Assembly (NCBI GenBank): GCA_964236535.1
Contig: CAXSEF010000001.1
Location: forward strand, 69,818 to 133,817
DNA: 64,000 nucleotides
Direction of reading: 5' to 3'
DNA from: an uncultured Acetobacteraceae bacterium
GTDB taxonomy: Bacteria; Pseudomonadota; Alphaproteobacteria; Acetobacterales; Acetobacteraceae
Positions 30,700-55,774 of the stretch are shown here, piece by piece. The notes under the pieces are model-generated. The model saw only the letters and a list, made by a program, of their open reading frames with translations, was not told the DNA's origin and searched no databases. Within the stretch, counting starts at the first letter, position 1. Each line of letters begins with the position of its first letter. Both the position numbers and the translations under genes were made by a program.

Positions 30700-30751
30700 C
30701 TGCACAGAGGCGCAGCATATCTCACGCGGATGCTGCAAAATCTCTGTGCAG
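30700..30751 (+). terminator. Long interrupted hairpin downstream of the rnj-DUF1467 unit (candidate terminator or processing site)
   Basis: CTGCACAGAG-gc-GCAGCAT-atctcacgcgg-ATGCTGC-aaaat-CTCTGTGCAG gives 17 paired positions. It is followed by ttggtcgattttca. Confidence 0.35.
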
Positions 30752-31105
30752 TTGGTCGATTTTCATAGACTGCCAGTCGGCTTGAAGCTGATTATTACGA
30801 CGGACAAACACTCTGTTGTCCGGTCGTGTGACTGGCGTTTCCTCCCCAAACTTGGCCCGCGTGCAATGCATGCGGGCCACCTTCTTGATATCACCGTGTC
30901 GGTATCTGTCACCTGTAAAGTTGTAATAGGTTTACTTCTTTCCCGGCGTGATTGTGCGCCGCACAAAGGTTGCAGGCGAGCCGCTGGCTTCGGTGCGCTT
31001 GCCCCGACACGACTGTCGCGGCAAGGGATCCGCAGTATAGCGCGCGCCCTGGCTCCCGCACCCGCCGCGCTGTAACCTCCGGCATTCCAGAGAACCGGAT
31101 GTCCG

Positions 31106-39499: not shown

Positions 39500-39643
39500 G
39501 TCGAAGTGCTCCCACAGGTTCCGACGTCAGAGGTCAGACCCGGGACAACGTACTGACACATAGCCGGTTGCACAATCGCGTGACACGGCCGGTTGGCGCG
39601 ACGTGCGGCCGGAGCAGGTGCCCGGCCGCGCGTCGCAGCAGGC

Positions 39644-40165
39644 TCAGCGCGGAGAAAGCACCATGATCATCTGGCGGTTCTCCATGCGCGGCATCTGCTC
39701 GACCTTGGTCTTGTCGTCCATGTCGGTGCGGATGCGCTCCAGCACCTTCACTCCGAGGTCCTGGTGGGCCATCTCGCGGCCGCGAAAGCGCAGGGTGACC
39801 TTGACCTTGTCGCCCTCGTCGATGAACGAGTTCATGGCGCGCAACTTGACTTGGTAGTCATGGTCGTCGATATTTGGACGGACCTTGACCTCCTTGATCT
39901 CGATGACTTTCTGCTTCTTCTTGGCCTCGTTCTTCTTCTTCTGGGCTTCGTACTTGAACTTGCCATAGTCGACCATCTTGACGACGGGCGGGTCGGCGTT
40001 CGGGCTGATCTCGAGCAGGTCCAGGCCGATGGCGTAGGCTCTCAGCAACGCGTCGCGCGCGCCCATCACGCCCTGCATCTCGCCCTCGGCGTCGATCAGG
40101 CGCACCTGGGGAACGCGGATGTCCTCGTTAACTCTGGGTCCGTCGCGGCTCGGGGCGGCAGACAT
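39644..40165 (-). CDS. infC: Translation initiation factor IF-3 (start codon uncertain)
   Basis: Contains [48 protein letters not shown] and [19 protein letters not shown] chose ATG at 40165 (MSAAPSRDG..). The ORF track extends to 40390, but that upstream part is not IF-3-like. An in-frame ATA lies 5 codons upstream. Confidence 0.85.
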
Positions 40166-40423
40166 GGGTCCTCTGGCTATCGATCGTCTCCTTGGTCGTT
40201 TCGATGTCGCGGCATCGGGCGAGCCGCGGGGCAGTCTTGGGCTCTCCGTCGGGCCCGGGCAAGCATTCTCGTCGGCAGACGTTGACAAAGCATGACATGG
40301 GGGTGCAGGCGGCCGGCGTTCAAGCCTGAAGCGGCGGGCGGCACCGGGCAGAGGCCGGTCAGGACGCGAGTATGGGCTCTCCCATAGCACTATGCCGACG
40401 GCTTAAACAGGCCGTCCGAGCCG

Positions 40424-40549
40424 TGGGTGGGCTCCGCGCAGACCCGCCAGAGCCGGAATTGCTGAGGAACGCCCTGCCTTGAACATAAGGATTCTCGAGG
40501 CGTGCCTTGAGCGGAGTCCAGAGGCGGCGCTTCTGGACTTGCCTTGCAG
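40424..40549 (+). repeat. Stacked-hairpin repeat, diverged full copy
   Basis: Left part is gtgggctccgcgcagacccgccagagcc. Right part is ggattctcgaggcgtgccttgagcggagtCCAGAggcggcgctTCTGGacttgccttgc. Confidence 0.65.
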
Positions 40550-50530: not shown

Positions 50531-50596
50531 CCTTGAGGGTGCGGGTTGGGGGGCTCAGCCCCAGCGGAATACAGAGGCAGAGCCTCTGGCCTTGCC
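50531..50596 (+). repeat. Stacked-hairpin repeat, half copy (C-type end)
   Basis: Sequence is ccttgagggtgcgggttgGGGGCTcaGCCCCagcggaataCAGAGGCagaGCCTCTGgccttgcc. Confidence 0.75.
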
Positions 50597-50636: not shown

Positions 50637-51818
50637 ATGCCGGACGCAAAGCCGACCCTGAGCCTGAGTCTGCACCGTTCGATCCACGAGATCGCACCCG
50701 ACGACTGGGACGCCTGCGCGGGGCCGGACAATCCGTTCGTCTCGTTCGCATTCCTGTCGGCGGTCGAGGACAGCGGGTCGGCGGGGTCGCGGACAGGGTG
50801 GCTGCCGCAGCACGCGGCGCTGCGCGATGCGGGCGGGCGGCTGGTGGCCTGTGCGCCGATGTATGCCAAGGCGCACAGCTACGGCGAGTATGTATTCGAT
50901 CACGGCTGGGCGGCGGCGTTCGAGCGGGCGGGCGGGGATTACTACCCGAAGCTGCAGGTGGCCTCGCCGTTCAGCCCGGTGACCGGGCCGCGCCTGCTGC
51001 TGCGGGCGGATTCGGGCATGGCGCCGGGGGCGTTGCGGCTCGCCCTGGCGGACGCGCTGACGCAGGCGTGCCGGCAGCTCGACCTCAGCTCGGTGCACGC
51101 GACGTTCTGCACCGAGGCGGAGTGGGCGCAGCTCGGGGAGGCGGGATGGCTGGCGCGGGTGGGCACGCAGTTCCACTGGGAGAACGCGGGCTATGCGGGA
51201 TTTGACGATTTCCTCGGCGCGTTGTCGTCGCGCAAGCGCAAGACGCTGCGGCGGGAGCGGCGGGATGCGCAGGCGTGCGGGCTGGAGTTCCTGACCCTGC
51301 GCGGGCCGGAGATCGAGGCCAAGCACTGGGAGGCGTTCTTCCGGTTCTACCACTCCACGGTGGATCGCAAGTGGGGCAATGCGTATCTGACGAAGAAGTT
51401 CTTTCCGTTGCTTGGGGAGCGGCTGGGGGAACGAGTGGTGCTGATGCTGGCGATGGAAGCGGGCCGGCCGGTGGCGGGGGCGCTGAACCTGCAGGGTTCG
51501 GACGCGCTGTACGGGCGGAACTGGGGGGCCGCGGGGGAGTGGCCGTTCCTGCATTTCGAGCTGTGCTATTACCGGGCGATCGACTACGCGATCGAGCACG
51601 GGCTGGCGCGGGTCGAGGCGGGGGCGCAGGGCGAGCACAAGATCCAGCGGGGGTATCGGCCGCGGCCGACGTACTCGGCGCACTGGATCGCGCATCGGGG
51701 GCTGCGGGCGGCGGTAGCGGAGTTCCTGGAGCTGGAGCGGCCGGCGCGGCTGGAGGAGATGGCGGAGCTGGACCTGCTGTCGCCGTATCGGCGGGACGGG
51801 GACGCTGAGGCGGGGTGA
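50637..51818 (+). CDS. DUF482 / FemAB-like GNAT-fold acyltransferase family protein
   Basis: 393 aa. Contains WDACAGPDNPFVSFAFLSAVEDSGS, PMYAKAHSYGEYVFDHGWA, YYPKLQVASPFSPVTGPRLL and FELCYYRAIDYAIEHGL. Confidence 0.8.
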   Translation: MPDAKPTLSLSLHRSIHEIAPDDWDACAGPDNPFVSFAFLSAVEDSGSAGSRTGWLPQHAALRDAGGRLVACAPMYAKAHSYGEYVFDHGWAAAFERAGGDYYPKLQVASPFSPVTGPRLLLRADSGMAPGALRLALADALTQACRQLDLSSVHATFCTEAEWAQLGEAGWLARVGTQFHWENAGYAGFDDFLGALSSRKRKTLRRERRDAQACGLEFLTLRGPEIEAKHWEAFFRFYHSTVDRKWGNAYLTKKFFPLLGERLGERVVLMLAMEAGRPVAGALNLQGSDALYGRNWGAAGEWPFLHFELCYYRAIDYAIEHGLARVEAGAQGEHKIQRGYRPRPTYSAHWIAHRGLRAAVAEFLELERPARLEEMAELDLLSPYRRDGDAEAG

Positions 51819-53788
51819 ATGCAGCGGTTCTAGTGAAGAACGGAATAGGGCGAGGTCTTTCTAGGTCGTTAAGGGCTTGGTCAAGGACGGGTTGGTGGAA
51901 AACTTACGTAGGCTTGGCCGACAAATAAACGGCATACAGAGCGCCGGAAGCGGATAATCGTCGTTCACTTTGCATTGTAGAAGGTTGTTGGCTGGCGGGT
52001 TGCTTCGGCCGAGCTGTGTGATAACAAATCAAAGTTCCAAAGCCAGTCAAGATGGAAGGCGAGCCAGAACGATTTATAAGACAAGGTTTGGCGGATTGGT
52101 GCGGTGCTGCAACGAATGAGCCTGTGGAACCGGCGCTGTTAGATATAGCCAGCTAAGGAAGCTAAGGAATGCCGAAAAAGATCTGGAAAGTTGGTGAGGT
52201 CTTTGGCATCGGCCGAGATTTGCCAACTAATTATGTCGAGCGGTTTGGAATAGATGACAAACTTATTAATAATTTAACTCGCGATCAGCATCTTGTAATT
52301 TACGGAAGCTCAAAGCAAGGCAAGACTTGCCTTAGAAAACATTGCTTGCAAGACGTGGATTATATCGTAGTTTCTTGTTTAAATAATATGGATTTACGTC
52401 AACTGCACTCCGTAATTTTGAAAAGTGCTGGCTATGTGGTGCAAGAGTCATCGACTAGAACAATTGACGGCAAAGCAAAAGTAGAAGCCAAGTTTGGCGT
52501 AAAATTTGGCATTCCGGGCATTGCTAAGGCAACATTAGGAACAGGCGCTGAGGTTGGAGCCGGTGTCACAGATGAGAGCATTACTAAACATCTTGAGCTA
52601 GATCCCAGCGATGCCAATGAAATTATTGGGGCGTTGCAAGAAATAAAGTTTACAAGATATATTGTGCTTGAAGATTTTCATTATCTTCCATATGAGACGC
52701 AGCAAGACTTTGCATTTGCATTGAAAGTATTCCACGAGAATTCTAAGATAACTTTTATAATAGTAGCAGTTTGGCGTGAAGAAAATCGATTAATTCTATT
52801 TAATGGGGATCTAACTGGTCGGGTTATTCCGATAGACGCAGACGCATGGGATGACACGCAGCTCAACAAAGTTATGTCTGATGGCGAACATTTGCTTAAC
52901 ATTCAGCTTCCCTCCCAATTCAAGTCTGAAGTAATTAAGGGCTGCTCTGAAAGCGTTTACATAGTTCAAGAAGTGTGTCACAGAGCATGCACGGAAAGTG
53001 GTTTGCACGAGACCGCAAGTAACTTTAGAAATATAATACCGACTAGAGCCCCATTAGATTACATTCAAGAGATAGTTCGAGAGCAAAGTGGCAGATATAA
53101 GGTATTTTTGCAGAACTTCTCGTTTGGCTTTCAGACCACTGATTTAGAAATGTATAAATGGATACTTTTTCCTATTATAAAGTCTAACGTTGATCTTCTT
53201 GAGAAGGGTTTGAGTTATAACTACATTAAATCTTTTATTGAAAGTAAACACCCGGAAGGTAACAGACTTAAGCCCGGAAATTTGACTCAGGCACTTCAGC
53301 TTCTGAGTAAGCTGCAAATCGCAAAAAACTTTAAGCCGTTTATCCTGGATTATGACAGCGCAAATCTCTTGCTATCTATTGTTGATAAAGGATTCTTAAT
53401 ATGGCTGAGTGGACAGGATCGCTCTGCTTTATTAGAGTTGATTGATCTGCCTGTTAGCTAATTTGTCAGTATTCTGGAGAATAGTTTTAGAGTTTTCCTA
53501 CTCTTGATTGATAAGACCTATAATAGGTGAGAGAACACAAGGATTCTAACTTAGACAGCGTGCGGAAAACGGGTGATTGCGTCACCTCGTCATTGGGCTA
53601 CGGCGGCGTTCACGGTGGTCCGTTGCGCCACTGTATACCAAACTCTGCTGGCTTATGCCCATGTACGGGAAGCCCCGAAACAAATTTTCCCGCACATGCA
53701 GTTTGAAACGGAACAAGGCCGGCGTAACTGAGGCTTTCGCCCAACGGCACAATGTTGGCGCTGTGCCGGAGGGCTTTTGTTACGCGGG
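51819..53788. other. AT-rich genomic islet (putative horizontally acquired DNA) with a single cargo gene
   Basis: Hand counts of 60-nt lines give about 70% G+C in flanking genes, about 40-58% in 51841-52140, and about 32-45% in 52169-53461. The switch occurs right at the stop codon of the DUF482 gene and at the repeat/thrS 3' end. No integrase, transposase, tRNA or flanking direct repeat was seen. Confidence 0.8.
52169..53461 (+). CDS. Orphan P-loop NTPase (ATPase_2 / ORC-Cdc6-like AAA core), function unknown
   Basis: It is the only long ORF in the islet (430 aa). An AAGGA SD lies 9 nt upstream. Walker A is GSSKQGKT (aa 46-53, nt 52304-52327). Walker B-like is YIVLEDF (aa 164-170, nt 52658-52678) followed by HYLP, as in the archaeal-ATPase-type DEFQYL motif. 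A hydrophobic strand ITFIIVAVW follows. The C-terminal ~190 aa are helical with no recognisable nuclease or effector motif. Confidence 0.8.
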   Translation: MPKKIWKVGEVFGIGRDLPTNYVERFGIDDKLINNLTRDQHLVIYGSSKQGKTCLRKHCLQDVDYIVVSCLNNMDLRQLHSVILKSAGYVVQESSTRTIDGKAKVEAKFGVKFGIPGIAKATLGTGAEVGAGVTDESITKHLELDPSDANEIIGALQEIKFTRYIVLEDFHYLPYETQQDFAFALKVFHENSKITFIIVAVWREENRLILFNGDLTGRVIPIDADAWDDTQLNKVMSDGEHLLNIQLPSQFKSEVIKGCSESVYIVQEVCHRACTESGLHETASNFRNIIPTRAPLDYIQEIVREQSGRYKVFLQNFSFGFQTTDLEMYKWILFPIIKSNVDLLEKGLSYNYIKSFIESKHPEGNRLKPGNLTQALQLLSKLQIAKNFKPFILDYDSANLLLSIVDKGFLIWLSGQDRSALLELIDLPVS

Positions 53789-53843
53789 TTTGGGGGCTCA
53801 GCCCCCAGCGGAGTCCAGAGGCAGAGCCTCTGGCCTTGCTGCC
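53789..53843 (+). repeat. Stacked-hairpin repeat, half copy (C-type end), overlapping the thrS 3' end
   Basis: Sequence is tttGGGGGCTcaGCCCCCagcggagtCCAGAGGCagaGCCTCTGGccttgctgcc. The thrS stop (complement of 53798-53800) lies in the loop of the first hairpin. Confidence 0.8.
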
Positions 53844-55774
53844 GCTTGACCTGACCTGAGATCCGGCGGCGTCGCCTCGGCCGCGAGCAGGGCTACGGCG
53901 TCGGCGAGGTTGAGGACCTCCTGGGCCGGGCTGCCGAGGCGGCGCAGCGCGACGGTGCCTTCCTCGGCCTCGCGGCGGCCGACGACGAGCAGCAGCGGCA
54001 CGTGGGCGAGGCTGTGCTCGCGGACCTTGGCGTTGATCTTCTCGTTGCGCAGGTCGGTGCGGACGGAGAGGCCGGCGGCGCGGAGCTGGCCGGCGACGAT
54101 CTCGGCGTAGGGGTTGGCGTCGGAGACGATGGTGGCGACGACGGCCTGGACCGGGGCAAGCCAGAGCGGGAAGCGGCCGGCGTACTGCTCGATGAGGATG
54201 CCGAGGAAGCGCTCGAAGCTGCCGAGGATGGCGCGGTGGAGCATGACGGGGCGGACCTTGGCGCCGTCCTCGGCGATGTAGGCGGCGTCGAGGCGCGAGG
54301 GCAGGAAGAAGTCGACCTGCAGGGTGCCGCACTGCCAGTCGCGGCCGATGGCGTCGCGCAGGACGAACTCGAGCTTGGGGCCGTAGAAGGCGCCTTCGCC
54401 GGGGTTGACCTCGTAGTCCACGCCGGCGATGCGGCAAGCCTTGATGAGGGCGGCTTCGGCGCGGTCCCAGGTGGCGTCGTCGCCGGTGCGGGTGGTGGGG
54501 CGGTCGGCGAACTTGATGCGGAACTCGGGGAAGCCGAAGTCGGCGTAGACCGAGCGCAGCAGGGCCACGAAGCGGGCGGTCTCCTCGGCGACCTGGGCCT
54601 CGGTGCAGAAGATGTGGGCGTCGTCCTGGGTGAAGGCGCGGACGCGCATGATGCCGTGCAGGGCGCCGGAGGGTTCGTAGCGGTGGCAGGCGCCGAACTC
54701 GGCCATGCGCAGGGGCAGCTCGCGGTAGCTGCGCAGGCCGTGGTTGAAGATCTGGACGTGGCAGGGGCAGTTCATCGGCTTGAGGGCGAGGTCCTTGTCC
54801 TCGTCCTCGACGCGGGCGACGAACATGTGCTCGCGGTACTTTTCCCAGTGGCCGGAGCGTTCCCACAGGTTGCGGTCGACGAGCTGGGGGGTGCGGACCT
54901 CGGCGTAGCCGTTGGTGTCGAGGCGGCGGCGCATGTAGGACTCGCAGGTGCGATAGAGGCGCCAGCCCTTCTCGTGCCAGAAGATGCTGCCGGTGGCTTC
55001 CTCCTGGATGTGGAACAGGTCCATCTCGCGGCCGAGGCGGCGGTGGTCGCGGCGCTCGGCTTCCTCCAGGCGGTGCAGGTAGGCGTCGAGCTCCGATCTG
55101 TCGCGCCAGGCGGTGCCGTAGATGCGGCTGAGCATGGCGTTGCGGTGGTCGCCACGCCAGTACGCGCCGGCGACCTTCATCAGCTTGAAGGCGGGGCCGA
55201 TGTCGGCGGTGGCGCGCATGTGCGGGCCGCGGCAGAGGTCGATCCAGTCGCCCTGGCTGTAGAGGGTGATGACCTGGTCGATCCCGAGGTCGTGGATCAG
55301 CTCGGCCTTGTAGGACTCGCCGCGGGCCTCGAAGAAGGCGATGGCATCGTCGCGGTCGCGGACCTCGCGGGCGAAGGGGCTGTTGCGCGCGATGATCTCG
55401 CGCATGCGGGCCTCGATGGCGGGGAAGTCCTCGGTGGTGAACGGGGTGTCGCGGGCGAAGTCGTAGTAGAACCCGTCCTCGATCAAGGGGCCGATGGTGA
55501 CCTGGGTGCCGGGGTAGAGCGACTGCACGGCCTCGGCGAGCACGTGGGCGGTGTCGTGGCGGATCAGCTCCAGGGCGTCGGGGTCGCGGCGGGTGACGAA
55601 GCGGACCTGGGCGTCGTGCTCGATCGGGCGGGCGAGATCCTGGAGCGCACCGTCGACGCGCATCGCGAGTGCCGCCTTGGCGAGGCCGGGGCCGATGTCG
55701 GCGGCGAGCGCAGTGCCGGTCACCGGGGCCTCGAAGCGGCGGATCGAGCCGTCGGGCAGGGTGATTGCGGGCAT
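53798..55774 (-). CDS. thrS: Threonine--tRNA ligase
   Basis: 658 aa. Starts [14 protein letters not shown] (TGS domain). Contains HVLAEAV, class II motifs FRHEPSG-like ([11 protein letters not shown]) and [10 protein letters not shown]. Confidence 0.95.

Follow-up and report, generated by a model that had tools for sequence, protein, structure and literature searches.

A single-gene islet of foreign composition encoding a predicted PDC-S59-family NTPase, a candidate anti-phage protein, in an uncultured Acetobacteraceae bacterium

A stretch of 64,000 nucleotides (nt) on contig CAXSEF010000001.1 of an uncultured Acetobacteraceae bacterium (hereafter, the window) harbors an AT-rich islet of ~1.97 kb (51819–53786), which lies in the terminator-side gap of two convergent housekeeping genes. 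We interpret it as an acquired accessory islet with a single gene for a nucleoside triphosphatase (NTPase) of the PDC-S59 family, which is probably a one-protein module directed against phages or other mobile elements. The foreign origin of the islet is well supported by its composition and by its absence from related loci, whereas the defense role of its product is plausible, by association only. The islet and its borders consist of the following features.

50637–51818, plus strand: FemAB_like gene (formerly DUF482, the name used below), left flanking host gene; Pfam PF04339, E = 7.5e-156; G+C content at third codon positions (GC3), 90%.
51819–52168: left arm, non-coding, 350 nt, 50.9% G+C; no relatives detected.
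52155–52159, plus strand: Shine-Dalgarno-like AAGGA, 9 nt upstream of the ATG; a second AAGGA is at 52164–52168.
52169–53461, plus strand: cargo gene, intact, 430 amino acids (aa), PDC-S59 family; 39.5% G+C, GC3 37%.
53462–53786: right arm, non-coding, 325 nt, G+C climbing from ~32% to ~60%; no relatives detected.
53787–53839: complete copy of a repetitive extragenic palindrome (REP)-like element with two hairpins, right border of the islet; it holds the stop codon and the last 13 codons of thrS.
53798–55774, minus strand: thrS, right flanking host gene, convergent with the cargo gene; Pfam tRNA-synt_2b, HGTP_anticodon, tRNA_SAD and TGS; GC3 95%.

The islet segment is compositionally foreign. 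In a sliding-window profile, G+C was 34–54% at ~51.8–53.7 kb, compared with 65–81% on both sides. A maximum-scoring-segment scan of the 64-kb window placed the top-scoring AT-rich segment at 51828–53716 (42.5% G+C, score 255), and this is the sole such segment against a background of ~70% G+C. The runner-up, 30717–30941, scored 16; this second-lowest patch (~49% G+C over 225 nt) is apparently intergenic and far weaker than the islet. Windows of 350 nt taken outside the islet had a mean G+C of 70.6% (standard deviation, 4.1) and a minimum of 53.7%. The tetranucleotide L1 distance between the islet and the rest of the window was 0.99, whereas other 2-kb segments averaged 0.36 and did not exceed 0.46. 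Within the islet, the cargo gene had the lowest G+C (39.5%), followed by the left arm (50.9%) and the right arm (51.2%, or 50.5% when ended at the REP-like element). An earlier reading of this DNA, made from the letters without database searches (the sequence-only reading), had described a drop from a background of ~70% G+C and a single cargo open reading frame (ORF) in a foreign segment between the DUF482 gene and a convergent thrS, and the composition scans and Pfam matches confirm each of these points. It had also called the shift abrupt. This applies to the left border, which directly follows the DUF482 stop codon (51816–51818), but not to the right border, which is graded: G+C stays at 32–38% until ~53560 and at 50–62% until ~53760, and the segment then abuts the complete REP-like element, into which the 3' end of thrS extends.

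We compared the locus with those of relatives, as the sequence-only reading had proposed, and the islet was absent from all 79 DUF482 loci and all 80 thrS loci. These relatives lie outside the species or genus of the host; the nearest have 88% protein identity for DUF482 (from uncultured Acetobacteraceae) and 79% for ThrS, and exact-protein look-ups for DUF482 and ThrS returned no match. The upstream pair of a RidA-like gene and DUF482 is conserved among relatives, and the sequence downstream of DUF482 varies by lineage. Downstream of DUF482, all 79 loci lack thrS, the cargo gene and any low-GC patch, and none has thrS within 6 kb. On the other side, the cargo gene is missing from the 80 thrS loci, the heptosyltransferase–thrS pair is conserved in 14 relatives, and infC directly follows thrS in the closest thrS relatives and in ~30 of the 80 loci. 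In the window, infC is displaced by ~13.6 kb from thrS.

39644–40170 (start approximate), minus strand: infC; Pfam IF3_N and IF3_C; tblastx of the thrS-downstream regions of relatives matches 39620–40250.

The two genes are separated by ~13.4 kb of native-composition genes plus the islet, and REP-like copies flank the thrS–infC block at both ends (40510–40542 and 53787–53839). The intervening genes are pabC- and pabB-like genes, COQ7, sulfite/nitrite reductase subunits, a formate/nitrite transporter, the RidA-like gene and DUF482. Because no related DUF482 locus has thrS nearby and relatives keep thrS and infC adjacent, the islet lies at a lineage-specific gene-order breakpoint; it does not simply interrupt a conserved junction. 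The "otherwise syntenic core region" of the sequence-only reading must therefore be abandoned. The islet nevertheless combines the two marks of horizontally acquired DNA, namely, atypical composition and absence at related loci.

Two further contigs illustrate the variability of this locus. On a distant metagenome contig (L148; ThrS 61% identical), thrS is convergent with a FemAB_like/DUF482 gene, and a RidA-like gene is found further on. The spacer (L148:6981–7085) is ~105 nt long and GC-rich, contains a hairpin and has no islet. No other contig showed such an arrangement, which matches the expected appearance of an empty site. Between its RidA-like gene and DUF482, one of the two closest relatives (DUF482, 88%) has ~4 kb of sequence (L051:1966–5983), at a position where the window has only a REP-like copy (50543–50595); the neighborhood of DUF482 thus varies on both sides.

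Signatures of mobility were sought in and around the islet. In agreement with the sequence-only reading, which had noticed no tRNA, integrase, transposase or flanking repeats, the nearest tRNA is 40 kb away (at ~11.8 kb), the islet contains no integrase or transposase, and the two border zones share no direct or inverted repeat of ≥8 nt that could be a target-site duplication or a terminal inverted repeat. The repeat that the sequence-only reading had noted at the right border is a dispersed REP-like element with at least nine copies in the window and not an island end; the 53-nt pair at 50543 and 53787 belongs to the same element, and mobile-element ends were rejected. The recommended search of both arms for element relatives covered plasmids, phages and 225 fetched loci, and neither at the DNA level nor in translation was a match obtained. 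The left arm contains only short ORFs (≤50 aa) that are not gene-like, has no Rfam match and has an unremarkable predicted RNA fold (z = −0.5). The right arm contains no credible ORF, its Rfam match is sub-threshold and its fold is weak (z = −2.4). Hidden genes or RNAs in the arms were rejected on these grounds, given the lack of a credible ORF, Rfam family, notable folding or similarity. The islet resembles classical genomic islands in atypical composition, absence from relatives and accessory cargo, but differs from them in having a single gene and no tRNA, integrase, direct repeats or element ends, and it does not qualify as a classical integrative island.

Assignment of the cargo protein to PDC-S59 is well supported by profile comparison. 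It matches the PADLOC model PDC-S59 (PDLC05049) with E = 1.9e-71 and 239 bits, residues 7–412 of 430 being aligned with model positions 4–399 of 428; NCBIfam gave no match. Among ~15 billion proteins, it is a singleton at 90% identity. We retrieved 1950 homologues in 90% clusters, the nearest being 68% identical. Among the 50% representatives, 2266 matched at E ≤ 0.001 and 406 at E ≤ 1e-30, and the best 150 were mostly stand-alone proteins of 420–450 aa. The following parts of the protein were recognized or predicted.

52304–52327, plus strand: Walker A, GSSKQGKT, residues 46–53; invariant or nearly so in 60 homologues.
52433–52600, plus strand: family-specific insert between Walker A and Walker B, residues 89–144; a beta-hairpin, then a variable Gly/Ser/Thr/Glu-rich loop.
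52661–52675, plus strand: Walker B-like IVLED, residues 165–169, followed by invariant FHYL.
53189–53458, plus strand: predicted C-terminal winged-helix domain, residues 341–430, from the secondary structure of the model; best Foldseek match, 2qby_A.

The AlphaFold2 model (predicted local distance difference test [pLDDT], 85.6; predicted TM-score [pTM], 0.81) consists of a P-loop alpha-beta-alpha core, a helical lid and a C-terminal winged-helix-like domain. The Walker A sequence of the form GxxxxGK[ST], the acidic Walker B after a hydrophobic strand, and the alpha-beta-alpha core with a helical lid are those of AAA+/P-loop NTPases. In the 60 homologues, E168, D169, F170, H171, Y172 and L173 were invariant. 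The same was true of H361, L367, G370, N371, Q374 and L376 in the winged-helix motif HP..L..GN..Q.L, in which P362 was nearly invariant. The insert was aligned across the 60 homologues, with pLDDT below 50 at residues 111–138. One relative gave a weak ETX_MTX2 match, and a pore-forming insert was considered; the hydrophilic, variable nature of the loop led us to reject this idea. No solved structure was detectable by sequence search. Foldseek returned 173 matches in the PDB at E ≤ 0.001, of which the 50 best listed were mostly AAA+ proteins; the matches included Cdc6/Orc1, RFC subunits, RuvBL, the archaeal ATPase 2qen and CED-4. The predicted architecture is that of an AAA+/STAND-like (STAND, signal transduction ATPases with numerous domains) NTPase with a helical lid and a winged helix, and with no recognizable effector domain.

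The link to defense comes from the family and from the places where its genes are found. PDC models represent candidates whose genes were found within BREX, DISARM or type I restriction-modification systems (Payne et al., bioRxiv 10.1101/2024.01.29.577857), and PDC-S59 is a single-gene phage defense candidate predicted by "guilt by embedding" (bioRxiv 10.1101/2024.01.29.577857). The cargo gene resembles PDC-S59 in the near full-length match to the hidden Markov model and in being a lone gene without an obligatory partner, as the "S" class implies, but it is embedded in no defense system and is flanked by housekeeping genes. In the contexts examined, homologues were likewise lone genes without a fixed partner or conserved flanks. 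DNA similarity between copies (~65% identity) ends at the ORF, so flanks shared with other copies were rejected. In all 43 loci, the gene was AT-richer than its host locus, by 6–20 G+C points. The two closest relatives (67–68% identity) are lone genes amid housekeeping genes only, with no surrounding element. One homologue lies in a toxin-antitoxin cluster between pyrimidine and lipopolysaccharide genes, and another at the end of a P2-like prophage with a KAP NTPase, an M78 peptidase and Dam. Plasmid homologues adjoin parAB, lie near repC, or stand beside an Abi gene and BrnTA. IMG/VR contained 48 full-length copies, including proviruses, whereas phage records in GenBank gave no protein match.

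A further context is in P2-family prophages. Several IMG/VR copies, as well as copies in 11 of 5426 complete Escherichia coli genomes, lie between the gpA replication endonuclease gene and the portal gene; these homologues are 47–50% identical to the cargo protein and AT-rich relative to the prophage. This position is the cos-proximal P2 hotspot, in which anti-phage systems have been demonstrated (Rousset et al. 2022, PMC9122126); the E. coli homologue WP_000402159 has five entries in Table S5 of that study, as "hypothetical". Homologues of the islet gene thus occupy exactly that hotspot, but the islet copy itself lies outside any prophage. In the E. coli hotspots (L226:4853–5593; PMC9122126, Table S5), WP_000402159 was seen with varying cargo, namely, a DUF4145 protein, a KAP NTPase or the hypothetical protein WP_001059831, which fits an independent module shuffled in the hotspot. 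The sequence-only reading had guessed that small islets of this kind hide defense or addiction functions; the match to PDC-S59 and the presence of relatives in known defense hotspots are in line with this guess.

Some relatives carry additional domains. A paralogue on an Acetobacter vaccinii plasmid has the NTPase module followed by a TIR_2 domain; it was aligned over residues 4–335 (hhalign probability, 98.3%), has VDDFHRL at the Walker B position and is without the hairpin insert. Fusions to an nSTAND3 NTPase or to an alpha/beta hydrolase occur in a few relatives. An alpha/beta-hydrolase gene is also found directly upstream of a homologue on a Leisingera plasmid (L093:5514–6545), and the 669-aa relative P0202 has an alpha/beta-hydrolase-like N-terminus fused to the NTPase module. 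The alpha/beta-hydrolase link may be functional in one sub-branch of the PDC-S59 family.

We compared the predicted protein with three known types of ATPase. STAND NTPases (CED-4/Apaf-1-like, Avs, nSTAND) have the same order of NTPase, helical and winged-helix domains, which is the minimal STAND core, and CED-4 is among the structural matches. On the other hand, the cargo protein has neither the sensor repeats nor the effector that, with the core, make up a STAND protein; only paralogues carry TIR or a second NTPase, and nSTAND Pfam matches were weak and confined to a few relatives. Orc1/Cdc6 and archaeal Walker-type ATPases (2qby_A, 1fnn_A, 2qen; AAA_22, ATPase_2) share the predicted AAA+ core, lid and winged helix, and gave the best structural matches (E = 1e-6 to 4e-5; TMq ≤0.48). 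The top match, 2qby_A, had a TM-score of 0.42 at 11% identity, with the C-terminus predicted to be winged-helix-like. These proteins differ in that identity is 11–13%, the Pfam matches are below the cut-offs, the cargo protein has the extra hairpin and loop between the Walker motifs, and no replication role can be inferred from the context of the cargo gene. TniB and IstB are encoded beside a cognate transposase; there is none in the islet and none recurs among 135 neighboring ORFs of the homologues.

The REP-like element at the right border is ~55 nt long and dispersed, with eight copies within three mismatches compared with 0.01 expected by chance.

1929, 5844, 20776, 27731, 34648, 40510, 50572, 53816 and 61794: positions of the conserved core of REP-like copies.
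50543–50595 and 40510–40542: extents of two REP-like copies other than the border copy.

In an alignment of the copies, hairpin 1 differs among them yet remains palindromic (compensatory variation), and hairpin 2 is nearly invariant: CCAGAGGC-AGA-GCCTCTGG. The thrS reading frame enters the element (53798–53839), so that the repeat supplies its final 13 codons together with the stop codon. For most ThrS relatives, the alignment extends no further than around residue 637–646 of 658.

Other explanations for the islet and its gene were weighed against this evidence. The change in composition at the left border is so abrupt that an assembly chimera or contaminant read-through might be suspected. 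A separately assembled Logan contig (L001, run ERR10807076) spans both islet junctions at 100% identity and includes 55 nt of the DUF482 gene on one side and 34 nt of the REP-like element on the other. This identity across both junctions speaks against a chimera, even though L001 may share a read set with the window's assembly, and we give such an artefact hardly any credence. The persistent AT-richness of the family (43 of 43 copies, although these are only ~65% identical in DNA) could reflect compositional selection, in which case the gene would be an old vertical resident held AT-rich, for example by nucleoid-protein silencing. This is very unlikely in view of its absence from the 79 DUF482 and 80 thrS loci, a GC3 of 37% versus 90–95%, which indicates no amelioration at all, the atypical composition of the non-coding arms as well, and the singleton status of the protein. 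The islet might instead be the last remnant of a decayed prophage or integrative element, with the gene as a "moron", eroded arms and a relevance to the host that is perhaps lost. Relatives are often prophage or plasmid cargo, the arms have intermediate G+C (~51%) and no assignable function, and the site is a rearrangement breakpoint. However, the arms resemble neither phages, plasmids nor the 225 fetched loci in DNA or translation, fragments of an integrase or a structural gene are missing, the intact ORF retains every family-invariant motif, and the closest relatives (67–68%) also stand alone amid housekeeping genes; we therefore consider decay an unlikely origin.

A different question is whether the protein is an immune factor at all. 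It could be an orphaned DNA-transaction ATPase of the ORC/Cdc6, TniB or IstB type, acting in replication, partition or selection of transposition targets. The weak matches of relatives to AAA_22 (E ≤ 0.01 in 53 of 60, best 1.1e-6) and TniB (7 of 60), the best structural match to Cdc6/Orc1 bound to origin DNA, and the plasmid copies adjoining parAB and near repC are consistent with such a role. By contrast, no transposase or replication partner recurs in the 43 contexts, the PADLOC family model derives from genes embedded in restriction or BREX systems, the variable gpA–portal hotspot fits an accessory role and not a core phage function, and a TIR-fused paralogue exists. On balance, a DNA-transaction function seems improbable.

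Our preferred interpretation, an acquired one-protein defense module, also has evidence to contend with. The cargo protein falls short of the Pfam AAA_22 (PF13401) cut-off (17.1 bits vs 27; E = 0.007), its structural matches are generic AAA+ proteins with TM-scores ≤0.48, and it ends after the winged helix with no effector or repeat domain recognized. No promoter-like site was detected in the left arm. The islet's own neighbors are housekeeping genes and not defense genes, and known defense genes are sparse among the 135 neighboring ORFs of homologues, with one match each to AbiTii, PD-T4-7, BrxP, PDC-S68 and a type II methyltransferase. WP_000402159 is not in the table of systems evaluated in PMC9122126, and in the literature we found no experiment on the PDC-S59 family and no mention of PDC-S59 or WP_000402159. 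The distance of the relatives used for the locus comparisons, all outside the species or genus of the host, counts on the same side.

On this interpretation, the islet would have arrived by horizontal transfer, through illegitimate recombination or through recombination near the REP element, and would have inserted at the gene-order breakpoint with nothing essential disrupted. Transcription of the gene would probably depend on read-through from DUF482 or on an unrecognized promoter in the left arm. A cue from an invader would lead to ATP-dependent oligomerization of the NTPase module. Nucleic acid might then be engaged by the winged helix together with the beta-hairpin insert, and replication of the invader would be blocked or the cell arrested. 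Since the protein has no effector domain, this killing or blocking step is a guess. More tentatively, we consider it possible, if rather doubtful, that an NTPase with a winged helix and a hairpin insert may alone suffice for immunity to phages or plasmids by an undescribed mechanism, for example, nucleotide-driven assembly on invader DNA that blocks its replication. The AT-richness of the gene would possibly be regulatory in that case, as the persistent AT-richness of the family could serve, for instance, a silencing that is relieved upon infection.

The islet accounts, as an acquired accessory gene, for the only compositional anomaly of the window, at a site that splits the usual thrS–infC pair. 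The sequence-only reading had named it the most likely location of anything new. This is correct insofar as no mechanism has been described for the family, but the family itself is already catalogued: the cargo protein is a further member of a widespread set of candidates, and the islet is a fairly ordinary accessory islet. The family spans from Acetobacteraceae to P2 prophages of E. coli. It is large and mobile, consists of lone genes and recurs in a proven P2 defense hotspot, including that of E. coli, where it is directly testable. If it is protective, PDC-S59 would be a minimal, NTPase-only immune module without a recognizable effector domain.

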